From a virus: a stretch of 64,000 nt of DNA. Below are positions 11,110 through 46,379 of the stretch, piece by piece. A model generated the notes under the pieces. That model saw only the letters and a list, made by a program, of their open reading frames with translations. It ran no database searches and was not told the origin of the DNA. Every line of letters starts with the position of its first letter. The stretch's first letter is position 1. The stretch is taken from positions 1 to 64,000 of the IMG/VR virus record IMGVR_UViG_3300036893_000033; one strand, written 5' to 3'. A program made the position numbers and the translations under genes.

Positions 11110-12050
11110 GCCGACACCTTCGCAATCAACCGCTCATACGTGAGGCGTTTCCCGACAATGGCGTCAATGAACGATTCCAGCCGCCGCATGGTGTGGCGCT
11201 TCACGTCGCCTTCGTTCAGGCGGAACGTGAACTCATCGACGTATCGGTGCAGATGCTTCGGAGACACCTGATGGTAAACGCCATGAATGCCGCGCTTCAG
11301 AACCGCCCAGACCGATTCAATGCCATTCGTGTGGGCTACGCCGTTGACCCACTGGCCAGCGGAATGGTTGCAGGTTTCGTGCCGGAAGAACAGGCCGTTC
11401 AGGTCAGTGTACGCGCCGAATTCGTCCGTGTAAATCTGGCTGCCAGCTTCCACCGCGCCGTGAATCTCGTTCTGGACCGTGCCCGCGTCCGTGGAGTCCA
11501 CCACCATAGCGACCGTGCGGCCACCAGCGCCACGCTCCCGCATCCCGAGGACGGCAGTCTTGCCGACGCTCCCGCGTCCAGCCTTGAGCTTTTTGTGCTC
11601 GTGTTTGTTCTTTTCCTTGCCACCGACAAACGTCTCATCAATCTCGATGATGCCCCGGAGTTTGTCGATGTTGTCGGGCGACGAACAGGCTTCCCGCAAC
11701 CGGCCCAAAATAAACCAAGCGGTTTTCTGGGTCACGCCGATTTCCTTCGCCAACTGCATCGAACTGATACCCTTGCGGGCCGTGACAACCAGGTACATCG
11801 AATAGACCCACTTGTGAAGCGGAACCTTCGACCGTTCAAACACCGTGCCAGTCCGAACCGTGAAATCGAAGTTACAGGCGTTGCAGTGATAGAACCCCAA
11901 CCGCTTGCGGACGGTGACCTGTTCACCAGACCGGCAGTCGGGGCAAACCGTGCCAGTGGGCCAGAGCCGCGATTCGAGATAGACCCGCGCCGATTCGTTG
12001 TCGGGGAACATCTCGAAGAGTTTGAAAGTGCTGATGGTCGAACGGCTCAT
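11106..12050 (-). CDS. IS1595-family transposase
   Basis: Zn ribbon CPDC...CNAC; KGISSMQLAKEIGVTQKTAW; EIDETFVGG, YTDE, HTNGIESVW, YVDEFTFR. Confidence 0.95.
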   Translation of the reverse strand: MSRSTISTFKLFEMFPDNESARVYLESRLWPTGTVCPDCRSGEQVTVRKRLGFYHCNACNFDFTVRTGTVFERSKVPLHKWVYSMYLVVTARKGISSMQLAKEIGVTQKTAWFILGRLREACSSPDNIDKLRGIIEIDETFVGGKEKNKHEHKKLKAGRGSVGKTAVLGMRERGAGGRTVAMVVDSTDAGTVQNEIHGAVEAGSQIYTDEFGAYTDLNGLFFRHETCNHSAGQWVNGVAHTNGIESVWAVLKRGIHGVYHQVSPKHLHRYVDEFTFRLNEGDVKRHTMRRLESFIDAIVGKRLTYERLIAKVSA

Positions 12051-12119
12051 GACTTAATTGTAGATGAGTACAGAGGCGAACGCAAGCGAAAATCGTCTGT
12101 ACTCATGTATATAATTCCC

Positions 12120-12232
12120 CTCCAAAGCTTCCGCAACTGATACCACAGCATCGCGCAGCCTGACCCGAAGAAGAATCCGCCAAGCCACAAGCACAGTTCC
12201 ATTACGCCCCGCTCCGCTGGGGTGAGGGTCAT
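12120..12232 (-). pseudogene. Small membrane-protein gene interrupted near its 3' end by IS1595
   Basis: Empty-site reconstruction gives MTLTPAERG...QLRKLWRTP* with the stop coupled to the ATG at 9981. Confidence 0.6.
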
Positions 12233-12681
12233 GACTTAACCCCTGACGGCTTCACGTTCGGATCAACGCCCTCAGGCTCCTCCGCTGCTTCCGGGTATCT
12301 TCGTGGTGTGCCTGCTTCCGCAATCCGCTTATCAATCGCAGCCAGCCTCCGCGCGGACTGCTCCCCCGCCTCGTGGCGCAACGCCTGAAGCGCCAGCAGT
12401 TCCGTCGAGTACAGGTGTAGCGGGCGCTGCGATGTGGTTTTATCCCAACCATGAAGTGAATGATGAACGGAACTGGAGCACGCCTTGCCGACTTCATCCG
12501 CGTAGGAATTAAACATCCATCCCTTAGTCAGAATCATTCCAGTCCACCCCGGCCGCGGCGGCGGAAGGTCGGGCTTCACCACTGCCGTTCTCCGCATGGC
12601 ACGCTCCAGCATTACTTCCCGTGCCAACTGCTCTATGGTGGCCTCCAGCGAGGCTAACTGTGCTTTCTCCGTCTTCGTCAT
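12229..12681 (-). CDS. Phage hypothetical protein
   Basis: 150-aa ORF with AAAGGA RBS. Confidence 0.65.
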   Translation of the reverse strand: MTKTEKAQLASLEATIEQLAREVMLERAMRRTAVVKPDLPPPRPGWTGMILTKGWMFNSYADEVGKACSSSVHHSLHGWDKTTSQRPLHLYSTELLALQALRHEAGEQSARRLAAIDKRIAEAGTPRRYPEAAEEPEGVDPNVKPSGVKS

Positions 12682-12699
12682 GGATTATCCTTTTCTGTC

Positions 12700-13401
12700 C
12701 TATTGCTCCAGGCGTTTAGTCCATCTGTACCGCCATCGGTCGTAGCGGATCAGTTCTTCGCCGTCGATGGATGCGCCCAATCGCATAGCGTCTTCGATCA
12801 GTCGCCGGATTGCGGTCGTGTGTTGTTTCTGCCTAGCGAACTTTGTGGGATAGATGCCAGAGGCCCGAACCTCATCAACCCTGGCGCAAACGTCCTCCGG
12901 GGAGAATCCGAAGTACGCACAGCTGGCATATTCGTAATAGTCACCTTTGCGCCACTGGTGAATACCCCGAAGCGTCACTGAGTAGCTTGCTTCATGGAAC
13001 ATGGCGTGGTGCATCGGATCTCCGACAATCGCGCAGATATCCGGCCCTTCGCATCCCAACCCTCCGAATGAGGCATTTTTCTCACGCGGTATCCTGCCGT
13101 CTGGCGTCTGCCAGAGCACTTCGTATGAGGCGATAGCTTCGATCCGGCCAGCGCCAGCCTTTGCGCCGTAGCTATTGAAGCCGGAAATGTGCATCGCCAG
13201 TTCTCCGACACGGAACGTCCCCGCGTATCCCATAGCGTCGATAACGCGCGGGTCTCCGTCCGGTATCTCAATTGTCCGGATCGAGCAGGGATACCCAAAT
13301 AACATTTGGTTGCCGTATGTCCCGTAGACCCGATCTTTTCCCACCAGCCCCGCTGGTTGCGGATGAACCGCTATATAGCCTCCCGTAAACATCAGGTTCA
13401 C
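12700..13401 (-). CDS. Hypothetical protein
   Basis: Long ORF; GTG start overlaps the upstream TGA. Confidence 0.6.
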   Translation of the reverse strand: MNLMFTGGYIAVHPQPAGLVGKDRVYGTYGNQMLFGYPCSIRTIEIPDGDPRVIDAMGYAGTFRVGELAMHISGFNSYGAKAGAGRIEAIASYEVLWQTPDGRIPREKNASFGGLGCEGPDICAIVGDPMHHAMFHEASYSVTLRGIHQWRKGDYYEYASCAYFGFSPEDVCARVDEVRASGIYPTKFARQKQHTTAIRRLIEDAMRLGASIDGEELIRYDRWRYRWTKRLEQ

Positions 13402-30532: not shown

Positions 30533-32686
30533 GTGGCAAAGAAAGCCGTAGCGGTCGCGCCGCAACCGAAGCCGGGCAGGTTCACCGATAAGCAAGTTCA
30601 GGCAAGCGATTTAATGCGCGGTGAAAACCGCCATACACAGCTTGAAGGCGGATCTCGCTGCGTTGCCAGTTGGACGATTCTTGATGGACAGGATAAGACG
30701 ATCAAGGAACTGGCCGAGATCGGCAAGCCAGTCCGGGTGATCACCTCTCGCGGTACGCAGGTAGCGGAAGCACCTTTCCTTAAAGGCTACTGTCGGATGC
30801 TGGAAGTGACGCTGGCGTCGGGTCGTCGAATAACGGTGACGCCTGATCATCGGTTCTGGTCGCAGTCAGGGTGGGTTCAGGCGCAGCGGCTGCTTCCTGG
30901 CGTTGGGGTCGCCGTTCTGCCGGAGGGTCGGATTGAAAGGCTCAGCGACGTCCTTCTGTTGGCATGGTGGCGGTTAACTGGCAAGTCACGAGATAACCCG
31001 GCGCCCGGCGGTTACGCCATGGATCGCGTCGTCTCCGTTATCGGCGCTGCGGAGCTTCCATACTACACGCTTCACGTCCCGGTAACCGAGCAATATTTCG
31101 CCAACGGCATCCTGAACCACAACTCCGGCAAAACAGCGGTAATAGTCCGCAACATCATCAACCGCGCGTTGTTCAACGCGGGTAGCCGCCATGTCAGCCT
31201 CAGGCTTCACCGCGTCAATGCCTGGGAGTCCCTCTGGCTCGACACAATCCCGAAGGTGATGGACCTTTTCTTTCCAGGGCTGCGCGCGACGGTTAAGCTG
31301 AATCTCCAGTTTGGCTACATGACGTTCCCGAACGGCGCTGAGTATTGGGTCGGCGGGCTCGACGATAAAGACCGTGTTGACAAAGTACTTGGCAGGGAGT
31401 TCAGCACCATTCACATTAATGAATCTTCACAGATCTCATACCAGTCGGTTCTGACCGTCCGTACCCGCCTTGTGCAGCGCGTTGTGGGGCGCAAGGGGCT
31501 CTGTGGTCAGTGCAAGGACCACTCGACGCACGTTACCCCTGAAGGCATAATCTCTTCCTGCTACCTGAAAAACAGGGAATTCCACGATCTCAACCCTATC
31601 GGGCGCGGGCACTGGAGTTACAAGGAGTTCCACCTCAACGTTGACCCGTTGTCGCCGGAGAAGAAGCTGAACCCCGCCGACTACGCCTGGTTGAAGATGA
31701 ACCCGGTCGATAACCTGCAAAACATCGACCCCGATTATTTGGCCATGCTCGACCGGATGCCGGCACGTATGCGCGCGCGGTTCAGGGATGGCGACTACCA
31801 GGACGAACTGCCGGGAGCGCTCTGGACCTCGATGGTACTGGATCGCTGTCTCGGAGATGTATGCGGCGGGACCAACGACTTCCCCGTCCCCATGCGCCGT
31901 ATCGTCGTAGGCGTAGATCCGTCGGGAGCCTCAGGCGCTATCGGGGAAAAGGCCGACAACATCGGCATCGTCGTCTGCGGCATGGGCGAGGATAACCGCG
32001 CTTACGTCCTCGAAGACGCCAGCATGACGGGCTCCCCTGAAAAGTGGGCCTCCATGGTCAACGACATGTGGCTAAAATGGGGCGCGGACCTGGTGGTCGC
32101 CGAACGGAATTACGGCGGGGAGATGGTCCGCAGCACGCTTCACCATGCAAACCCACACATGCGCGTGGACCTGGTAACTTCGTCGCGGGGGAAAATATTG
32201 AGAGCGGACCCCGTGTCTCTGCTGTACGAGAATCAGCCGACGCGAGTTATCCACTGCGGAGTATTCCAGACGCTCGAAGAGGAGATGTGCTCGATCCGCA
32301 GCGGCGACACGGCGGAGGATGTCAGGAAAAGACTGGGGCGTTCGCCGGGGTCGCTGGACGCCTGCGTGTTCGCGCTCACGGAGCTGTTCGGCTTAAACCG
32401 GAGCATGGGGCTGATCGAGTTAATGAAGAAGATGGCGGAGAACCCTGTGGTGCAGGGTCAGATTGGAGATAACGAGTTGGCCAAAAAGATTATGGGTAAG
32501 GTGGTTGGCAGTCAGATGACAAAGCCCGCAGTCGGGGATGAGACACTGGCGTGCCCCGCGTGTACGTCGGTGTCGGTGTCGCGGATGCAGCAGGGCTGGC
32601 GGTGCTCGCAGTGCGCGCACGTCTGGGGAAATCTGATATTGCCGCCGGGGATGCCGAAGAGGGGTGACGTGGCGAAGACGTGGTGA
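30533..32686 (+). CDS. terL: Terminase large subunit with intein
   Basis: GGSR|intein|SGKT Walker A; HINES Walker B; DLNP; nuclease IVVGVDPS, VAERNYGG. Confidence 0.92.
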   Translation: MAKKAVAVAPQPKPGRFTDKQVQASDLMRGENRHTQLEGGSRCVASWTILDGQDKTIKELAEIGKPVRVITSRGTQVAEAPFLKGYCRMLEVTLASGRRITVTPDHRFWSQSGWVQAQRLLPGVGVAVLPEGRIERLSDVLLLAWWRLTGKSRDNPAPGGYAMDRVVSVIGAAELPYYTLHVPVTEQYFANGILNHNSGKTAVIVRNIINRALFNAGSRHVSLRLHRVNAWESLWLDTIPKVMDLFFPGLRATVKLNLQFGYMTFPNGAEYWVGGLDDKDRVDKVLGREFSTIHINESSQISYQSVLTVRTRLVQRVVGRKGLCGQCKDHSTHVTPEGIISSCYLKNREFHDLNPIGRGHWSYKEFHLNVDPLSPEKKLNPADYAWLKMNPVDNLQNIDPDYLAMLDRMPARMRARFRDGDYQDELPGALWTSMVLDRCLGDVCGGTNDFPVPMRRIVVGVDPSGASGAIGEKADNIGIVVCGMGEDNRAYVLEDASMTGSPEKWASMVNDMWLKWGADLVVAERNYGGEMVRSTLHHANPHMRVDLVTSSRGKILRADPVSLLYENQPTRVIHCGVFQTLEEEMCSIRSGDTAEDVRKRLGRSPGSLDACVFALTELFGLNRSMGLIELMKKMAENPVVQGQIGDNELAKKIMGKVVGSQMTKPAVGDETLACPACTSVSVSRMQQGWRCSQCAHVWGNLILPPGMPKRGDVAKTW
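30659..31123 (+). mobile_element. Mini-intein (155 aa) in the TerL Walker A motif
   Basis: Starts with C (CVASWT), block B TPDHRF, ends ANGILNHN followed by Ser +1; no LAGLIDADG motif. Confidence 0.92.
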
Positions 32687-35839: not shown

Positions 35840-38800
35840 ATGCGTCTCATTCAGGCTCCGATAGTTCGTAACATCGCCCCACTGGCCAATGCCGTTGCGA
35901 ACGGCGCCCGTCGCATGGCGAATGGCCTGTTCCGCCCGCCTCCATCCACCATCGCGGGGGTAGATTCCCGCAACTGGCCGTCAGCGTTGCAGCCGATACA
36001 GCCGATGGGGCCGCCAGGCTCGCAGCCGTTGGGGATGAATTTCTTCTACGGGCAGAATCTGGTTTATACGCCGAGGCCGGATGCTGAGTACACGGCGGCT
36101 CAACTTAAGACCCTTTCGCAATACCCACTAGCCCGCATCTGTATTGAGAACGTCAAAGACACGATCTGCTACCTGCCGTGGCGCATCCAACTGAAGCCGG
36201 TTGCTGGCGAGATGCACACCGACCGCGCTAAGCGCGCCATGAGGGACAAGAACATCGGCAGACTGACCGGGCTGTTCGAGTGCCCCGATGGCCAGCAGCC
36301 GTGGTCGCAGTGGTTGAGGCCATTCCTTGATGCGATGCTCGTTACCGACAGCGCATGTTTCGCCGTGGAGCGCGGCAGTAGGGGCGGCATTCCGCGCCTC
36401 AAGGTGCTCCTGAGTAGTGATTCCATTGCGCGTTATATTGACGACACTGGGTTCACGCCGGAGCCTCCAAGCCCTGCATATAGTCAGCTCTGGGACGGGA
36501 TTCCAAGGATCGATTGCACTACGGATCAGCTATTTTACGTGCCCCGAAACATCGCTCCGCGCAACACAATGTCGAGCGCGCTCTACGGATTCGGCAGCGT
36601 CGAGCAACTCGCCAAACTCATCGAGATCGGCATAGCTCGCCTCATTTTCGTATATGCGTACTATCGCTCTGGCAGCATCCCCGACATGCTCCATATCGCC
36701 CCCGCCGACGTGACCGCCAAAGAGGCCACCGAGGCGATGCAGTGGATGAACTCAGAACTGTCCGGGCAACTCGATACCCGCCGTGGGTACCGCGTCATTC
36801 AGGGATTTCAGCGGGACGGAAAACAGGAGCAGATCCTATTCCCGAAGGAACCGCTGCTGACTGACCTGTTCGACGACTACCTGATCCATCAGATTTCGTT
36901 CGGGATTGGATGCTCAGCACAACGACTCCTGAAATCGATGAACCGCGCATCAGCTGTCGCGGCTCAGGACGCCGCCGAAGAAGAAGGCACGGCCCCGTAC
37001 GTCCAGTGGCTCCAGGCACAGCTAAACTTCTTCATCCAGCGCAGGCTAGGCTACCCGGAGTACGAAATCTCCTTCGACCCCCAAATGGAACTGGACGGCC
37101 TCAAGCAAATGGAGATCGACACCGGCTACGTCAAGAGCGGCATCTACACGATCAACGAACGCCGGGAGCTCAGAGGCGACGATCCACGCGCTGAGCCACA
37201 GGCGGACCAACTCGGGGCGTTGACGCCTAACGGCTGGCTTGCCATCGGAGCGCCCCCCGCAAACTCAGACGACCCTAAGCCGAAACCACAAGTAGCGCCA
37301 CCTGAACCCGCCCGCTCCCGCAAGTCCAGCAGGGTCATCCTGGTCGAGCGCGGCGACCCCATGCCGATGTTTGTGCCGGGGACCCAGGTCGAGAAGGTCT
37401 GGTCGATACCTTCGGGTAAGGTGTTTGACGCGGTGCCGGTTGACGAGGATGCGCCGTTGATGCTCCGTGGCCTCGAGAAGTATTCCTACGGGAGTACGCA
37501 GGTAGACATCGCCCCTGCCAGTGACGCAGGCATGAAGCTAGCCGCACTGCGGGCGTCCATCGATAAATCGCATTTGATGGCGAAGGGACTGGAGAATACC
37601 CCCCACATAACGGTTCGTTATGGCTTCAAGGGCGACACCGCCGCCATCCGTAAGCATCTCCGCGATATGCCGCCGTTCAATATCGCCTTCGGCAAGGTAG
37701 CGGCATTCGATCCGACCGCCAACAGCGATGACGCCGCGCCATTGCACGTTGAGGTTGAGTCTTCGGATCTGGCATCCATCAACGCATCCATCGTGGCACA
37801 CGGCGACTGGAAGAAAGCCGACTTCGAGTATCACCCGCACGCCACCATCGCCTACGTAAATCCAGACAATGCAGCGTCGTATGTGGAGTCCATGAGCACC
37901 GCCATGGCGGGCCTGACATACAACGTAACCGCGATCACAATCAGCCCCAGGGACGGTGATCCAGAGCGCGTGGAACTGTTGGGCGTTCCCGCTGCGCTGA
38001 AGACGGCCAAGGGTGACGGGACAGACCCCTTCACCGACCGCGCACCGCAACCCGTTACCGTCTCCACGCCGGCGATCTCAGCCGAAGCTGATCCGACCTC
38101 CGAAGCCAGCAACGATCCTGCGGATGACGCCAGCACAAAACACCTGAAGCTTCAGATGAAGCAGGATGTCCACAAGTGGCTTACTGGCATCAAGTCAGGC
38201 GTTATCACCAGAATCTCCAGCGTCAAGAAAATCTCCAGAGGCAAACTCCGCAAAGACGACCAGCGCGATATGATCCTGTACGCCGCGTTGGACTACGAAG
38301 TCTTCGAACTGCCGTCTATCGTGGAGGAAACTTTGTACGAAGCCGCGCACTCAGGTGCGCTCCGTGGATTGTCGCAAGTGCAGGCCGTGTCTTCGGTGAA
38401 CATCGGCACACAGCAGCAACTGGCGCGCGAGTTTGCACAGGATCGCGCCGCCGAGATGGTCGGCATGAAGTGGGTGGACGGGGAGCTGGTGGCTAATCCG
38501 AATGCCGCGTGGAGTATCGACGCGACCACGCGGGAGGCGATCCGCAAGGCGGTCACGGATGCTTTCTCGGCGGAGACGAAGATGACCGACCTCATCCAGG
38601 CCATCAAGGACCTGGACACGTTCGATGAGGCGCGAGCGGAGAATATCGCTGTCACCGAGGTTCACAACGCGCAGTCGGCGGGAAATTACGCCGCTTGGGA
38701 GCAGACTGGGGTGGTGTTGGCTACGAAGATCGTATGCTCTAGTCTTGGACCGTGTAAGATATGCGCAGCTAACGAAGCAGCAGGGTCGGTGCCGTTTGGC

Positions 38801-38887
38801 CAGAAGTTTCCGTCGGGACATGTCCGACCGCCATTTCATCTGGGTGGATGTCGCTGTATACAGACCGGGACTGAGTTTAAGAAGTAG
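35840..38887 (+). CDS. Portal protein fused to a 2H-phosphoesterase domain and a MuF-like head morphogenesis domain
   Basis: Portal motifs (LYGFGSVEQ, GSIPD, GIYTINERRELRG); HITV and HATI 2H motifs; RAENIAVTEV...PPFHLGGCRC. Confidence 0.88.
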   Translation: MRLIQAPIVRNIAPLANAVANGARRMANGLFRPPPSTIAGVDSRNWPSALQPIQPMGPPGSQPLGMNFFYGQNLVYTPRPDAEYTAAQLKTLSQYPLARICIENVKDTICYLPWRIQLKPVAGEMHTDRAKRAMRDKNIGRLTGLFECPDGQQPWSQWLRPFLDAMLVTDSACFAVERGSRGGIPRLKVLLSSDSIARYIDDTGFTPEPPSPAYSQLWDGIPRIDCTTDQLFYVPRNIAPRNTMSSALYGFGSVEQLAKLIEIGIARLIFVYAYYRSGSIPDMLHIAPADVTAKEATEAMQWMNSELSGQLDTRRGYRVIQGFQRDGKQEQILFPKEPLLTDLFDDYLIHQISFGIGCSAQRLLKSMNRASAVAAQDAAEEEGTAPYVQWLQAQLNFFIQRRLGYPEYEISFDPQMELDGLKQMEIDTGYVKSGIYTINERRELRGDDPRAEPQADQLGALTPNGWLAIGAPPANSDDPKPKPQVAPPEPARSRKSSRVILVERGDPMPMFVPGTQVEKVWSIPSGKVFDAVPVDEDAPLMLRGLEKYSYGSTQVDIAPASDAGMKLAALRASIDKSHLMAKGLENTPHITVRYGFKGDTAAIRKHLRDMPPFNIAFGKVAAFDPTANSDDAAPLHVEVESSDLASINASIVAHGDWKKADFEYHPHATIAYVNPDNAASYVESMSTAMAGLTYNVTAITISPRDGDPERVELLGVPAALKTAKGDGTDPFTDRAPQPVTVSTPAISAEADPTSEASNDPADDASTKHLKLQMKQDVHKWLTGIKSGVITRISSVKKISRGKLRKDDQRDMILYAALDYEVFELPSIVEETLYEAAHSGALRGLSQVQAVSSVNIGTQQQLAREFAQDRAAEMVGMKWVDGELVANPNAAWSIDATTREAIRKAVTDAFSAETKMTDLIQAIKDLDTFDEARAENIAVTEVHNAQSAGNYAAWEQTGVVLATKIVCSSLGPCKICAANEAAGSVPFGQKFPSGHVRPPFHLGGCRCIQTGTEFKK

Positions 38888-39116
38888 TGGTTTTCGGCGT
38901 TATCGGCTGTAATGCTGGTGGCCGCTCCCGTGACCCGCTGAACTTCCCATCGATCCATCCCATCACGATTCGCGTCAATGTCGATGTCAAGACCATCGGT
39001 CTGCTCATCTCAGGAACGAATCGCAGATAGTTCCCGGTTCCGTCCGCAAGCAGCGACTGGATGCGCTCCATGTCTCGTTGAGTGGGGATGTCGCGGTTGC
39101 TGAGCAGGATGGTCAT
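38877..39116 (-). CDS. Hypothetical protein
   Basis: ATGA-coupled to the Ntn-hydrolase gene. Confidence 0.5.
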   Translation of the reverse strand: MTILLSNRDIPTQRDMERIQSLLADGTGNYLRFVPEMSRPMVLTSTLTRIVMGWIDGKFSGSRERPPALQPITPKTTTS

Positions 39117-39646
39117 ATACTCTCCACCACAAACGGCCCCCGCACCATGCAGTTATGCCGCTCCGCAGCCTGAAGCGCGACCGTTATCCGCGCCGCTGGC
39201 TCCATCCCATGCGTAGCAAACAACGCCCCACGCGCCAGTGCATGTCCCGACCCGCAGGCGTCGTACCCGTCCAGCGGTTCCTCCACCTGATAATCGCCAT
39301 CAATGAGAAACAGTCTTCCCTGATAGCCGATCAGGAACGTCCCTCCGCTCTCGACTTCCTTGTCCTTCGAAGCCATACCGGCCTCCTTCAGGCAGGCTCG
39401 CACCGCATCCACGAACGTCGTCACCATGTAGGAAAAAATCTCCTGATCGTGGCGCTCTGGCGGTTGGAATTTGTAACGGAGAACCTGCCCCATGCGGAAG
39501 CTGGAGGTGAACCCGAACAGGAAGTCTCCGTTGCGGAATATCTTCGGGTCGGCACGGAGCGTTAAATCTGGACCACAGGAACCCGCGCTGTCGCCGCCGA
39601 TCCAGACCCTGCCGTCTGTGTGGATGAAGCCTGCTATGGCGGTCAA
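39113..39646 (-). CDS. HslV/proteasome-type Ntn-hydrolase family protein
   Basis: N-terminal (M)TAIAG...IGGDSAG; ACGSG..LARGAL; VRGPF. Confidence 0.8.
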   Translation of the reverse strand: MTAIAGFIHTDGRVWIGGDSAGSCGPDLTLRADPKIFRNGDFLFGFTSSFRMGQVLRYKFQPPERHDQEIFSYMVTTFVDAVRACLKEAGMASKDKEVESGGTFLIGYQGRLFLIDGDYQVEEPLDGYDACGSGHALARGALFATHGMEPAARITVALQAAERHNCMVRGPFVVESI

Positions 39647-40211: not shown

Positions 40212-42086
40212 TTGATGAAGGAATTTCGCAAGACAGTCACCATCACCGACGTTGTTGACGGACCCGATGGACTCGCGACCGCTTACGGGATCATGACCGC
40301 CGAAAAGGTGGACAAGGATAACGAGCGCTGCATCTACGACTGGCAGGTGCCTTTAACGAAGGCTTGGTCGAACGAAATATTTGAGTCCACCACGCTGGCA
40401 GGTCAAGAGCCGTCCCTCGGAAACGTTCGCCTCATGCACGCTGGCGTGATTGCCGGGAAGGTCCAGAAGATGGACTTCGACGACGCCGCAAAGGCCATTA
40501 AGATCGGTGCTCAGGCCGCTAACGCTGAGATCAGCGACATGCTGCGGCGAGGCTTGGTCACTGGATTTTCTCAGGCCGGGCGCTACACCAAGAAGTCTAC
40601 AATTTGTTGCTCTGCCGATCCACAGGAAGACGAAAAAACGGGCGTAGTGTCGTGCAGTAAGTGCAAAAAGGCAAACCCCGTTGTGGACTACGCAGCCAAA
40701 ATCTCCGAAGTCTCCTTCGTAGACAACCCCTGCCTCGACGCCGCCCACTTCGACTCCGTGAAGTCCGCCAGTTTCCGTTACCAGAAAGCAAACGGCTCCA
40801 GCGAGATGCGCAAGTTCTCCGTGGACGTACAGAAGTCCGAAAAAACCAAGCGAGTAGCCGGTGAAGACCTCCCCGCCAGCGCCTTCGCCTACGTAGGCGA
40901 CGAAACCGACACGGGCACCTGGAAGTTCCCGATCAAATTCTCAACCCCGGCGTTAACGAAGTCCCATCTCCGCAACGCACTGGCCCGCTTCGACCAGGCC
41001 AAAGGCATCCCCGAATCCGAACGCGAGACCGTGAAGGCGAAAATAACCGCCGCCGCCCGCGCCGCAGGCATCGAGGTGTCCGCCGACAAGATGGTCGCAG
41101 CGGTAACGGCGAAATTCTCGGAAGCAGTCACCAGGAGCGCGGCGAAGCACAACCTTAAAAAGGGGCTGTACGACGTATCCCGCTTCGCACAGATCCTTCA
41201 GGATCTCGCGTACCTCTGGCGGTCCAGCATCGCCGAAGAGGAGTACGAGGGTGACGACTCCGAAATGCCCGATATGCTCCGCGATCACGTGGAGCAGTTG
41301 GCCGACAGTCTCGTAACGATGTGCGCCGAAGAGGCCGCAGAGCTGATTCCCGCTGCTAAAGCAGTCATACCGGTGGCTACCAAGACCGCCGAACCCAACA
41401 CAGGAGCAAAAAAAATGAACGAAGAAATGCTGAAGGCGGCGAAAAAGGGTCTCGCGGCTCACTTCAAGAAAATGGGCGCGCACTTCGGAAAGTGCGCCGA
41501 CATGCACGAAAAAATGGCAGCGTCTCATGGCGAGATGAAGGAAGCATGCAAGGCCATGATGGAGCACCACAAGGGCGAGGTAGGCAAGGCCGACGGCGAA
41601 ACCTCGGCTGGCCCCAAGGCGCAGATGGCGTTCTGCAAGGCGCAGATGGAACACCACACCGATAAGGAAGCTCACCACGAAAAAATGGGCAAGGCCATGG
41701 ACGCGATGGCCGATCACGCGCACGCAATGGCGAGCGGCATGGACTACGACTCCGACGCTGGTAAGGCTGCTCTCGCACAGGTCTGCAAAGACGTGGACGC
41801 TGAGATGGCAAAGTCCGCTGAGCCGGATGTCGCCGCCGCCGTGAGTGAGGCGATCAAGGGCATGCAGAAGGGGTACGACGCGAAGATTGACGCGCTGACC
41901 GCACTGGTTGACAAACTCACCGCAGTCGGCACGCCCAACAATCCGGTGCTCCCCATCGGCCAGGCGGTCAAGGGTACTGGCACGGACGGATTCCCTCGCG
42001 GAGTTGGACTGCAACTGATCAAGCGTGACGGCAGCGGAACTCCGACGTCGGAACCCGACGCCGAAGACGGATCGGTCGGGCTTTAA
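40212..42086 (+). CDS. Prohead protease / scaffold fusion
   Basis: GNVRLMH, VTGFSQAGRY, EVSFVDNPC; DLPASAFAY...KFPI...RNALARF insert; His/Met-rich helical C-terminus. Confidence 0.85.
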   Translation: MMKEFRKTVTITDVVDGPDGLATAYGIMTAEKVDKDNERCIYDWQVPLTKAWSNEIFESTTLAGQEPSLGNVRLMHAGVIAGKVQKMDFDDAAKAIKIGAQAANAEISDMLRRGLVTGFSQAGRYTKKSTICCSADPQEDEKTGVVSCSKCKKANPVVDYAAKISEVSFVDNPCLDAAHFDSVKSASFRYQKANGSSEMRKFSVDVQKSEKTKRVAGEDLPASAFAYVGDETDTGTWKFPIKFSTPALTKSHLRNALARFDQAKGIPESERETVKAKITAAARAAGIEVSADKMVAAVTAKFSEAVTRSAAKHNLKKGLYDVSRFAQILQDLAYLWRSSIAEEEYEGDDSEMPDMLRDHVEQLADSLVTMCAEEAAELIPAAKAVIPVATKTAEPNTGAKKMNEEMLKAAKKGLAAHFKKMGAHFGKCADMHEKMAASHGEMKEACKAMMEHHKGEVGKADGETSAGPKAQMAFCKAQMEHHTDKEAHHEKMGKAMDAMADHAHAMASGMDYDSDAGKAALAQVCKDVDAEMAKSAEPDVAAAVSEAIKGMQKGYDAKIDALTALVDKLTAVGTPNNPVLPIGQAVKGTGTDGFPRGVGLQLIKRDGSGTPTSEPDAEDGSVGL

Positions 42087-42126: not shown

Positions 42127-43980
42127 ATGAGCCGCATGATGATTAAGGCTGGGGCGACACTCGACGACAACGGGTACAAAACCCTAAGCAACTGGACGGC
42201 GAACTTCTACAAGAAGTCGCTGCGCAACTACCTGGAGCACGGCGAAAAGACCACGTTTGAGGCCGACATCCTCAAGTACAAGCGCGGTCGCAGCAGCCAC
42301 TGCGCCTACGGCCCCGTCACCGAGATGCAGCCCATGCCGGGGACGCAGCAGAAGTGGGAGCAACTGGAAACCGAGAAGTTCGCGCGCTTCGAGTTCGCGA
42401 GCAAGATTATCCAGAAGATGTTCCACCACCAGAACAAGGAGTTCGGGCTGGAGAAATCGGGAGGCGTCACCAGCGCCCTCGGCTTCAACTTCTACGATCT
42501 CCGTGGACCGGCTCTCATCCTGGCCCCCATCAACGTACCGTTCCGCAACTCCATCCCGCGCGTGGGCCGCGTCAACGACGGCTACGGTACCGCGGCGAAC
42601 TGGAAGGCGTCCCGTAACCTCGGGCAGAACTACGGCGGCGTGGCCGAAGGTCAGCGCAACGCGACACAAACTCCCGACGAGATCGACTACACCGCGACGT
42701 ACAAGCAGATCGGTAATGAGCGTGCGGTGACGACCTCGGCGGAATTCGCGTCTGAAGGTTACAGCGCACAGCTTGGCGATGAGCATGTTCGCGGCATGTT
42801 GTCCCTGTGGCTCTCAGAAGAGGCCATTAACATCCACGGCAACAGCGGCACGGCGGCCACCGGCGGCTACGCGCTCGGTACGGCAACCACGCCTACCATC
42901 GCGACCGCGACCGGCACGTCCACCTTTGGCGGAGCAACTCCCGTATCTGTGGCTTGCGTGTATATGACCGCCATGGGTAACCCCTCGAACAATCAGTACG
43001 GTTACATGACCAATCTTGTCGCGAACGCCAACACGGTCACTGGTGGCCTGGTACCCAATACCGTTCGCACAAACGCCGACGGATCGGTTATCACCGTACC
43101 CGGCGGCATCAGCGCCATCAGCGCGATGTCCTCGGTTGTAACTCCCAGCGGCACTACTCAGGTAGCCGTGGCCACCGTCCCTGCTGGCACGAAGGGTGTC
43201 TATGGATACGCCTGGTACGTGAACGTCACCGACGCCTCCGCGCCGTCGCTTGCAAACGCCAAGCTGGCCGCGATTACTCAGTTCCCTACTTACACGATCA
43301 CCTCTGCCACTATTGCTGGCACGCAAACCGGTAACGCCACTGGCCTCAATACCGACAACAGCTACAGCCAGTACGACTACACCGGGTTGATGGGATTTGC
43401 GGCGGGCACCGCTGGTTCTTACTACAAGGATCTCGGCGGCGGAACCCTCACCCCCACCAAGACAGGCAAGATCGTTGAGATCGAGACCGCCCTCCAGACC
43501 ATGTACCTGAACTACCAGACCGGCATCAATGCCATCTGGGGTTCGCAGGACGCCATCGAAGCCGTTGACCTTGCTTCCCGCTGGGGTGGGTCGAACGGAC
43601 AGGCGCAGCAGTTCTTCTTTAACGGCGGCGCTGGCGAAGGTGGCCGCAATCTGGTTGTCGCCGGCTACGCGGTGACCGGTTACCAGTCGCGGTACGCTGC
43701 CGCTAACGAACTTGGCGCGCAGGTGATCCCGCTGCGCATCCACCCGATGATCCCTCCGGGCACGCTGTTCTTCGATATTTCGGAACTGCCTGCCGGGTAT
43801 GAGAACAGCCGCCTGCCGTACCTCCGGGCGATGCTCACGCGGCGCGATTACCACTCCTACGAATGGCCGATGGTCACCCGCCAGTGGACGTTCGGAACCT
43901 ACGCGGAACAGGTGCTGGCGCACAATATGCCCTGGAGTTGCGGGGTAATCACCGGCATTGCCGGCGCGAACCTGAGTTAA
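42127..43980 (+). CDS. Major capsid protein with large Thr/Gly-rich insertion
   Basis: Position after the protease; AGGAG RBS; FYDL...PFRNSIPRV, IHPMIPPGT, YHSYEWP. Confidence 0.85.
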   Translation: MSRMMIKAGATLDDNGYKTLSNWTANFYKKSLRNYLEHGEKTTFEADILKYKRGRSSHCAYGPVTEMQPMPGTQQKWEQLETEKFARFEFASKIIQKMFHHQNKEFGLEKSGGVTSALGFNFYDLRGPALILAPINVPFRNSIPRVGRVNDGYGTAANWKASRNLGQNYGGVAEGQRNATQTPDEIDYTATYKQIGNERAVTTSAEFASEGYSAQLGDEHVRGMLSLWLSEEAINIHGNSGTAATGGYALGTATTPTIATATGTSTFGGATPVSVACVYMTAMGNPSNNQYGYMTNLVANANTVTGGLVPNTVRTNADGSVITVPGGISAISAMSSVVTPSGTTQVAVATVPAGTKGVYGYAWYVNVTDASAPSLANAKLAAITQFPTYTITSATIAGTQTGNATGLNTDNSYSQYDYTGLMGFAAGTAGSYYKDLGGGTLTPTKTGKIVEIETALQTMYLNYQTGINAIWGSQDAIEAVDLASRWGGSNGQAQQFFFNGGAGEGGRNLVVAGYAVTGYQSRYAAANELGAQVIPLRIHPMIPPGTLFFDISELPAGYENSRLPYLRAMLTRRDYHSYEWPMVTRQWTFGTYAEQVLAHNMPWSCGVITGIAGANLS

Positions 43981-45509: not shown

Positions 45510-46379
45510 ATGGCAGCAATCGACCTCACCACGACAGCATCGGTTCGCGGGTACCTCAGCATCACAGCCGGGGCCAGTGCCGGTGCGCCGCCCGTCATTG
45601 CTACCACCATCGCCGCGCCCATCGCTGCCGGAATCCACACAGTTACGCCGCTTAGTATGCAGAATATCGCCGTCAACACCGTTCTTCAGATTGACGTGGG
45701 AATGTCACAGGAGTACGTCCAGGTGACCGGCATCACGGGCACTACATTCACGGCCAGTTTCGCGCTGCCGCACGCGGCGACCCCGGTGCCGGTCGCGGAT
45801 GTCACCGACTCCGTGATCGCGGGGATGATTTCCGACGCCTCTCAGATTTTTCTGGAGCGGATCGGGGTGGCATCGCTCAACTCCGTCAATACGTTCAATG
45901 AGACGTACGACGGCAACGGGACTTCGACTCTTTTTCTGCGTCAGCGGCCTATTGTGTCGATCACGCAGCTCATGGTTAACACCGTGATCGTGCCGCAGTC
46001 CACGCAGGTGAATATCCCGGGCTGGGTTGTGGCGGACGATGCGGCCAGGCTAATTATCCGCCCCGCTGGCCTGCCGTGGGGCCAAGGCTGGAACGGTGGC
46101 GTCGGAATCTACCGCCAGGGGTACGCAGGCTGGGGCTGGGCGTACCAGCAGGGAATCCAGAACATTCAGGTGTCGTATACGGCTGGCTACACGATGACGC
46201 CGTGGGACATCCAGCAGAAGGTTACGCAGTTGGTGGCGATCAACTATAAGCGCCGCGACTGGATCGACCAGCAGAGCCAGGTATTGCAGGGGGCGGGCAA
46301 TATCCGCTACCGGGACTGGGAGTTTCCGCCTGAGGTTGAGAACTGCATTCGGCGGTACATGCGAAGGAGCTTGAATTAA
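45510..46379 (+). CDS. Head-tail connector/adaptor protein
   Basis: DLTTTASVRGYL; ETYDGNG..LFLRQRPIVSI; VSYTAGY..TPWDIQQ. Confidence 0.8.
   Translation: MAAIDLTTTASVRGYLSITAGASAGAPPVIATTIAAPIAAGIHTVTPLSMQNIAVNTVLQIDVGMSQEYVQVTGITGTTFTASFALPHAATPVPVADVTDSVIAGMISDASQIFLERIGVASLNSVNTFNETYDGNGTSTLFLRQRPIVSITQLMVNTVIVPQSTQVNIPGWVVADDAARLIIRPAGLPWGQGWNGGVGIYRQGYAGWGWAYQQGIQNIQVSYTAGYTMTPWDIQQKVTQLVAINYKRRDWIDQQSQVLQGAGNIRYRDWEFPPEVENCIRRYMRRSLN

Follow-up and report, generated by a model that had tools for sequence, protein, structure and literature searches.

What is gained by a phage that places a phosphoesterase of the 2H superfamily between its portal and MuF domains? The question is raised by a 1015-aa open reading frame (ORF) in a 64,000-nucleotide (nt) stretch of DNA (hereafter, the window), positions 1 to 64,000 of IMG/VR record IMGVR_UViG_3300036893_000033, which represents an uncultured soil phage of 94,887 bp with an estimated completeness of 87%. 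According to profile searches, the encoded protein comprises, in this order, a portal domain, a first linker, a 2H phosphoesterase domain, an acidic second linker and a MuF domain (Table 1). We tentatively read it as a head-interior carrier with an enzymatic cargo, serving as an early counter-defence effector that most likely destroys nucleotide signals of the host immune system; we put this forward as possible rather than probable.

As a preliminary description of the locus had stated, a single ORF on the + strand runs from an ATG at 35840 to a stop at 38887, and the profile searches divide it into the same portal, phosphoesterase and MuF parts that had been proposed there. A related phage from a different metagenome (locus L004), with approximately 99% nt identity, has the same uninterrupted ORF, and in the divergent loci L005 (40% identity), L027 and L074 a single ORF likewise spans all three parts, portal, 2H and MuF, which makes an assembly or frameshift artefact very unlikely as the source of the fusion. 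In other relatives the same parts are separate adjacent genes, and both states thus occur naturally. The fusion gene lies inside a head module, with a large terminase gene upstream and a probable capsid gene and a head-tail adaptor gene downstream.

The middle domain is apparently a genuine 2H enzyme and is predicted to be catalytically competent. In the full-length protein, the Pfam model PF13563 (2_5_RNA_ligase2) matches residues 577-707 above its gathering score (E 3.4e-12); when residues 535-730 are scanned alone, the match scores 51.5 bits against a cut-off of 27, and in a search of the whole genome it scores 51.8 bits. The histidine codons of the two HxT motifs, H589 at 37604 and H667 at 37838, are exactly where the preliminary description had placed them. 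Across the family, the four motif residues (H, T, H and T) and about 20 more positions show little or no variation, and none of these residues is missing from the window protein. Because a large family keeps these motifs, and because an AlphaFold model of the domain, built from a 26-sequence alignment, has a 2H fold with a mean predicted local distance difference test score (pLDDT) of 91, the motif pair is evidently not a product of chance. Comparison of the model with known structures by Foldseek and VIA-align gave 2H-superfamily matches only, with Z scores of up to 16.2 over 156-163 residues. The domain therefore combines two H-x-T/S motifs, a two-lobed alpha+beta fold and a PF13563 match above threshold, as is characteristic of the 2H superfamily.

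The domains on either side are recognisable phage head proteins. The alignment with portal-MuF relatives of 750-830 aa spans the entire portal domain, whose identity follows from the profile matches together with the large terminase upstream. The Pfam Phage_portal model (PF04860) gives 24.4 bits on the fusion protein, under its cut-off of 39.1, and is passed by orthologues; likewise, Phage_Mu_F (PF04233) gives 20.7 bits, under its cut-off of 29.6, and orthologues lie above it. In the MuF domain, phrog_2468 matches residues 892-959 (E 1.3e-10), phrog_115 matches as well, and our local MuF hidden Markov model (HMM) scores 243 bits. Residues C975, H1000, C1004 and C1006 are nearly invariant in the alignment of relatives, the C-terminal PPFHLGGCRC noted in the preliminary description is present, and in relatives the MuF domain is either fused to the portal or encoded by the next gene. 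Since the MuF domain (residues 831-1010 of 1015) terminates the protein, the enzyme lies N-terminal to it. The 2 linkers have no Pfam match, for linker 1 even at E<=10.

Which 2H enzyme does the domain resemble? Sequence models place it outside the Acb1 family: with residues 535-730 scanned alone, LigT_PEase (PF02834) scores 25.8 bits against a cut-off of 23.3, whereas Acb1 (PF23474) reaches 14.1 bits against a cut-off of 27 (E 0.04) and thus fails its threshold; run against the whole phage record, the Acb1 model gave no match at E<=1. The predicted structure matches both groups, with LigT-like enzymes scoring higher (Z 14.5-16.2) than Acb1 (12.9-13.3). The best match is Thermus thermophilus TT0787 (Z 16.2), followed by the Deinococcus radiodurans cyclic phosphodiesterase (CPDase) and the Pyrococcus horikoshii LigT-like protein (both 15.8), human Usb1 (15.1, with 161-163 residues aligned), Escherichia coli LigT (14.5), AKAP18 (14.2), phage FBB1 Acb1 (13.3; 134/137 residues, 18% identity), Burkholderia phage Acb1 (12.9) and the Penguinpox cyclic GMP-AMP phosphodiesterase (11.9). 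Sequence queries of the PDB, whether by the domain or by the family profile, were uninformative: they yielded chance matches only, plus Acb1 (9q2g) at E 0.3-1.9. By Acb1's own profile, then, the domain falls outside that family, and by sequence and model it is slightly nearer to LigT-type enzymes. The clade as a whole does border on Acb1: at E<=1e-3, 25/64 relatives have a match to the Acb1 model, and in the nearest ESM Atlas clusters, which consist of viral 2H proteins of about 180 aa, the Acb1 family is found in 27-62% of members. When hhalign compares the family with the Acb1 sequence of the T4 record, both HxT motifs align, the second with PHITLSY of T4 Acb1, although the probability is only 44%. 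Of the initial designation of the domain as Acb1-like, the 2H fold and the intact HxT pair stand; the Acb1 part lacks specific support, given the failed profile and the nearer LigT-like structures. Anti-CBASS activity (CBASS, an antiphage signalling system based on cyclic oligonucleotides) is thus a candidate among several 2H chemistries, and neither sequence nor predicted structure appears to favour it. In annotation, the domain should be named 2H phosphoesterase, not 'RNA ligase' or 'Acb1'.

The gene arrangements in related phages tie the enzyme to the head. Viral contigs, searched with the alignment of the family, yielded 80 related loci (65 non-redundant), on which we mapped HMMs made locally for portal, MuF and 2H. 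Of the non-redundant loci, 37 have portal and MuF fused and 22 have them as separate neighbours (undetermined in 6). Ten of the 65 (15%) have a 2H domain; it invariably lies in the same region of the head module, although six arrangements occur: a single portal-2H-MuF ORF (L004, L005 and L027), the same ORF with an intein in the portal (L074), a portal-2H fusion followed by a separate MuF gene (L020, L021 and L031), a portal gene followed by a 2H-MuF gene with a weak ART-PolyVal match in between (L014), a portal gene followed by a free-standing 2H-His_Phos_1 gene and then MuF (L025), and a 2H domain fused N-terminally to the product of the gene that follows portal-MuF (L075). In L025, the free-standing gene (11535-13136, + strand; His_Phos_1 E 2.9e-24) would pair a cyclic phosphodiesterase with a phosphatase, a combination that could fully dephosphorylate the 3' end of an RNA or nucleotide. 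Besides that of the L004 twin, the nearest 2H domains belong to P0019 (51% identity) and P0026 (44%), both of which are orthologues of another window gene (40212-42086) and have the 2H domain inserted between an N-terminal domain and DUF6582; with the N-terminal fusion in L075, this gene is an alternative 2H carrier in relatives. The same junction receives other cargos too: a polyvalent-type inorganic pyrophosphatase (InPase) ahead of MuF in L078, an ATLF-like metallopeptidase after the portal in L040 and an intein after the MuF domain in L012. Besides 2H, the enzymes found at this position are InPase, the ATLF-like metallopeptidase, ART and the histidine phosphatase. Because the 2H clade is attached to portal, MuF or prohead protease-scaffold proteins in related phages, its sequence-based link to head assembly is strong, and the tie between enzyme and head proposed at the outset is borne out by covalent or genetic linkage to three head-interior proteins.

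On a wider scale, the 2H domain belongs to a large phage clade whose copies nearly always sit within virion or "polyvalent" proteins of several domains. In an exhaustive HMMER search, 2383 cluster representatives matched at E<=1e-3, 667 of them at E<=1e-10; of the best 149, just 6 have a length of <=230 aa, and 54 are longer than 1500 aa. The partner domains in 64 mid-sized members include RelA_SpoT (10), MuF (4), portal (3) and DUF6582 (3), together with ART-PolyVal, topoisomerase IB, ParB-like nucleases, GGDEF, GNAT and the S78 prohead protease, a set that is the signature of "polyvalent" virion-packaged effector proteins. In a FastTree phylogeny of 163 2H domains, the copies carried by portal, MuF and protease proteins fall into one 38-row clade (support 94), which holds only 1/53 giant-protein copies and within which the carrier switches several times. 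A BFVD search located the fold within large proteins from cultured phages, actinobacteriophages and others; the annotation of one of these is structural protein, that of another capsid-morphogenesis protein. Among cultured phages, the 309-kb Tunturiibacter phage Tunturi_5 (L002) has a 2H copy, 35% identical to that of the window, in the 1362-aa gp321 (record positions 261501-265589), and would be a possible experimental model for a virion-borne 2H enzyme. Its gp321 is annotated as 'MutT/NUDIX hydrolase' and sits between connector and minor tail genes. A motif just after the 2H domain, [KR]-[YF]-[SD]-x-[DS]-[QE]-x-R-D-x-x-G-[RK]-[WF], recurs in P0079, P0127, P0128, P0163 and L014, which are unrelated polyvalent proteins, and may be a linker, docking or processing signal.

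A plausible processing enzyme is encoded nearby. The AlphaFold model of the N-terminal 185 residues of the 40212-42086 product (pLDDT 88) has T4 gp21 as its sole structure match (E 1.6e-5), and His76 and Ser120 are invariant in 35 orthologues; we read the gene product as a putative prohead protease fused to a scaffold-like region, an architecture that would put DUF6582 in a head assembly or scaffolding context. The His-rich helical region of this product contains repeats such as AHHxKM, HHTDKEAHHEKM. The following gene, 42127-43980, probably encodes the major capsid protein, as judged from phrog_13692 (a family with no function on record), gene position and the orthologue pattern. The body of the capsid protein begins K-[AS]-G-V-T-T-x-L-G-F-N-F-Y-D-L-R-G-P after a variable N-terminal part, in the window and in the L006-L083 orthologues; the junction between the variable and conserved parts is a likely maturation junction, and in the orthologues it reads h-x-K/AGVTT, with the Lys conserved and the preceding residues (P2) variable. 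The window capsid protein also has a long Thr/Ser/Ala-rich insertion. The pattern [LIVMF]EK (h-E-K) occurs only twice in the 1015-aa fusion protein, one of these directly before the 2H domain (GLEK/YSYG), and once in the capsid protein, as GLEK/SGG at 42448-42456, where the N-terminal part meets the body. In relatives, h-E-K is found just before the 2H domain in P0004, P0005, P0019, P0049 and P0038, and just after it in L014, L020, L021, L025, L027 and L031. We treat the LEK sequence as a lead only to a candidate processing site.

How might such a protein work? In the mechanism that we propose, the portal part would form the dodecameric DNA entry ring. The C-terminal side of a portal faces the capsid interior, and the 2H and MuF domains would hang from this inner side on flexible linkers, enclosed in the head, with up to twelve 2H copies per particle if all portal subunits keep the domain. 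The enzyme itself would be a metal-independent phosphoesterase acting on RNA-type phosphodiesters or 2',3'-cyclic phosphates. Either the prohead protease would free the 2H domain, to be expelled with the DNA at infection and to act in the newly infected cell, or surplus protein that was not inserted into heads could act late in the producing cell. The likeliest targets would be cyclic oligonucleotides of CBASS or of type III CRISPR (clustered regularly interspaced short palindromic repeats) systems, or other 2'-5'/3'-5'-linked messengers. A more far-reaching version, which we consider doubtful, takes the portal-MuF junction as a general cargo site, with 2H, InPase, metallopeptidase, ART and His phosphatase as capsid-delivered counter-defence enzymes; here the 2H domain, freed by the protease at h-E-K and ejected together with the DNA, would erase cyclic-oligonucleotide alarms before phage expression.

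We rank degradation of immune signals first, because the 2H clade borders on Acb1, because its partner domains point to nucleotide conflict and because no RNA-repair gene was found in the record; RNA end-healing ranks second, favoured by the LigT-like matches and the L025 pair, and a Usb1-like RNase third. Searches of the 94.9-kb record for RNA ligase (PF09414, PF09511), RtcB (PF01139), KptA (PF01885) and tRNA genes found none, although the negative for PF09511 is weak, since the control search with this model had no match in any of the genomes. This absence argues against a self-contained RNA-repair pathway. Several observations weigh against immune-signal degradation by a delivered enzyme. 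Sequence and structure are closer to LigT-type 2',3'-cyclic phosphodiesterases than to Acb1, and the pairing of 2H with a histidine phosphatase in L025 resembles RNA end-healing. An uncleaved protein would leave the enzyme tethered to the portal, unable to exit the capsid; the LEK motif by which it might be freed is short and was chosen post hoc, and LEK sequences flanking the 2H domain show no covariation with the capsid junction across relatives. The phage record is only about 87% complete, and we found no biochemical, proteomic or other experimental study of a head-carried 2H enzyme among open-access papers and preprints.

In the end-healing explanation, the 2H enzyme would open those 2',3'-cyclic phosphate ends that host anticodon nucleases or toxin RNases produce, after which host ligases (RtcB) would reseal the RNA; an injected or late-cytoplasmic enzyme could in this way, we propose, keep translation going by way of resealed tRNA or mRNA. 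The best structure matches are LigT-like (TT0787, CPDase and LigT), LigT_PEase scores above its cut-off and the L025 gene is a CPDase-plus-phosphatase pair, but the record has no RNA ligase, RtcB, KptA or tRNA gene, and Iyer et al. report no RNA ligase association for this type of 2H domain (PMC5512222); on balance we regard end-healing as unlikely. We give little credence to an offensive ribonuclease that would trim or cleave host RNAs early, in the manner of Usb1, for host shut-off or for destruction of guide RNAs. It is the role favoured by Iyer et al. 2017, by analogy with fusions of PBECR RNases to MuF and portal (PMC5512222), and human Usb1 is among the top structure matches; however, sequence identity to Usb1 is only 8-9%, all 2H families score alike, which makes the fold match non-discriminating, and the domain has no marked RNA-binding surface and the locus no evidence of an immunity-like gene. 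Similarly improbable to us is an enzyme that serves the producing cell only, its fusion to the portal timing expression with the late genes, when head proteins trigger defence. Co-translation with late structural proteins would suit such timing, as would the separate 2H gene in the same operon of some relatives (L025), and a portal-tethered domain cannot be ejected unless it is cleaved; yet timing alone can hardly explain repeated covalent attachment to portal, MuF and protease-scaffold proteins. That the fusion arose by mis-assembly or a frameshift-masked join, or that the middle domain is dead or an inert spacer, is scarcely credible: portal, 2H and MuF are separate ORFs in some relatives, but the continuous ORF recurs in the independent metagenome of L004 (99% nt) and in the divergent L005, L027 and L074, and all catalytic and family-invariant residues are kept.

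The enzymes known to degrade immune signals, such as Acb1 and Apyc1, are to our knowledge synthesised once infection is under way. If immune-signal degradation by a capsid-loaded enzyme is true, the enzyme would act without delay, which would alter the view of how CBASS and type III CRISPR signalling are timed against their counter-measures, and it would be the first demonstrated virion-borne anti-defence enzyme that degrades signals. Such an enzyme has been predicted in the comparative-genomics literature since 2017; a search of open-access papers and preprints turned up no bench test of the prediction. The phages related to the window provide a natural experiment, with one 2H clade in six gene arrangements and a recognisable prohead protease adjoining. 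Cultured phages suitable for tests are Tunturi_5 and those Gordonia and Microbacterium phages that have 2H domains in large virion or capsid-morphogenesis proteins; carriers of the domain include the Gordonia phages Tardus and MelBins and the Microbacterium phage OneinaGillian.

Some further observations concern the fusion gene and its neighbourhood. Compared with L004, the last approximately 65 MuF codons are strongly diverged (74 mismatches in the last two 150-nt bins, from 38690), and these 2 bins extend approximately 100 nt beyond the stop of the fusion gene; positions 38728-39117 do not align to L004, marking a replaced patch at the 3' end of the gene. The MuF end motif is HLGGCRC in the window and H-PKCRC in L004. 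A recent exchange of the 2H cassette between the window phage and L004 (0 differences in 169 codons) was considered and dropped, as the 2 phages are approximately 99% identical overall, with patchy differences. The portal domain itself is split by separate inserts in P0010, L045, L056 and L074; intein-like or LAGLIDADG inserts (Intein_splicing, LAGLIDADG_3) occur in portal or MuF genes of P0010, P0018, P0038, L012, L045-L049, L056 and L074 and break the portal HMM match in two. The next gene after the fusion, on the opposite strand between the portal fusion and the prohead protease gene and thus in the middle of the head module, is 39113-39646 (-), which encodes a 177-aa product matching phrog_1040 ('peptidase HslV family', E 8e-25) and has no Pfam or NCBIfam match. 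An NCBIfam profile search gave no match above threshold.

Table 1. Positions of the fusion gene, its parts and neighbouring head genes in the window.
Feature	Position	Strand	Evidence or remark
Large terminase subunit (packaging module upstream of the fusion gene)	30533..32686	+	phrog_979, E 2e-41
Portal-2H-MuF fusion gene, 1015 aa	35840..38887	+	Single ATG-to-stop ORF, translation; same single ORF in L004, L005, L027 and L074
Portal domain, about residues 30-470	35927..37249	+	phrog_2662 on residues 65-490, E 1.3e-51; local portal HMM, 741 bits
Linker 1, Pro-rich stretch and ~50 residues without recognisable family	37250..37471	+	Variable or absent in relatives
L545-E546-K547, candidate prohead-protease site directly before 2H	37472..37480	+	Motif pattern only
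2H phosphoesterase domain, residues 548-716	37481..37987	+	PF13563, LigT_PEase, AlphaFold pLDDT 91, 2H-only structure matches
First predicted catalytic HxT, H589-I-T591 (PHITV)	37604..37612	+	H and T invariant in 26 and 64 family members
Second predicted catalytic HxT, H667-A-T669 (PHATI)	37838..37846	+	H invariant in 64 members; H/T nearly invariant in 26
Linker 2, acidic, Pro/Thr/Ser-rich	37988..38329	+	Not conserved among relatives
MuF domain (head morphogenesis, SPP1 gp7-like), about residues 831-1010, with end H/C motif	38330..38869	+	phrog_2468, phrog_115, local MuF HMM
Putative prohead protease (N-terminal ~185 aa), DUF6582 and His-rich helical scaffold-like region	40212..42086	+	gp21 match, DUF6582 match
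Probable major capsid protein, conserved Lys at junction FGLEK/SGGVTS	42127..43980	+	phrog_13692, E 3.6e-56; orthologue alignment
Head-tail adaptor	45510-46379

Finally, how does the fusion compare with known systems? Acb1 (T4 gp57B, FBB1), the anti-CBASS 2H nuclease (Hobbs et al. 2022, PMC9117128), shares with the window domain the 2H fold, the HxT/HxT tetrad and the second-motif context DF-x-Y-x-PH-x-T-x-x-Y, but it is a free-standing protein of approximately 150 aa with a C-terminal lid, whereas the window domain has approximately 170 aa and forms part of a structural protein. The LigT-like CPDases (TT0787, P. horikoshii, E. coli LigT and D. radiodurans) are the best structure matches, and the window domain passes both PF13563 and LigT_PEase; these enzymes are cellular and free-standing, whereas the window domain belongs to a phage-specific clade in virion proteins and to a record without RNA-repair partners. 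T4 internal proteins and Alt are targeted to the core, trimmed by gp21 and injected. They offer a mechanistic analogy in which entry via the scaffold or portal core, trimming of the gp21 type and ejection would also apply to the window protein, whose phage has a predicted gp21-fold protease; they have no sequence relationship to it, and its processing and ejection are inferred here. A virion ejection protein is reported to block a CBASS effector without catalysis (bioRxiv 10.1101/2025.07.23.666291).

Closer relatives in architecture are the portal-MuF and MuF-effector fusions. In actinobacteriophages, portal-MuF, MuF-protease and MuF-toxin fusions have been documented (PMC7302621), SPP1 gp7 (MuF) binds the portal, is thereby carried into the procapsid and helps infection to begin (PMC6316719), and MuF has been proposed as a delivery vehicle for fused toxins (PMC5576092). 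The window protein has in common with these that the portal is fused to or next to MuF and that MuF would be an interior-targeting module able to carry enzymes (in known cases VIP2 ART, for example). MuF polymorphic toxins (Jamet et al. 2017; PMC5576092) have their effector C-terminal to MuF and an immunity gene downstream, whereas in the window protein the enzyme precedes MuF, there is no evident immunity gene and the next gene is the HslV-like one on the opposite strand. We found no paper linking MuF and Acb1 among open-access papers and preprints. The closest precedent comes from Iyer et al., who in 2017 described polyvalent proteins in which 2H domains are joined to MuF or portal, and never associated with RNA ligases, and proposed an RNase role or degradation of nucleotides from nucleotide-activated defence systems (PMC5512222); their 2022 paper takes such fusions to suggest head packaging and injection against SMODS, cyclic-mononucleotide and CRISPR signalling (PMC9503650). 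The idea that packaged and injected 2H-MuF/portal proteins act against nucleotide signalling is therefore already published. The window protein shares with these head-packaged effectors the 2H domain on a portal/MuF carrier, the late-gene context and the same predicted logic, and with its enzymatic domain joined to a virion carrier it has the architecture of a polyvalent effector. It differs in that the 2H domain lies between portal and MuF in one 1015-aa chain, and its phage group differs in that it also has the domain on the prohead protease-scaffold gene and free-standing. New here are the tally of the six arrangements, the protease-scaffold gene as a 2H carrier, the subclade of head-carried 2H domains and the motif that is a candidate for processing.

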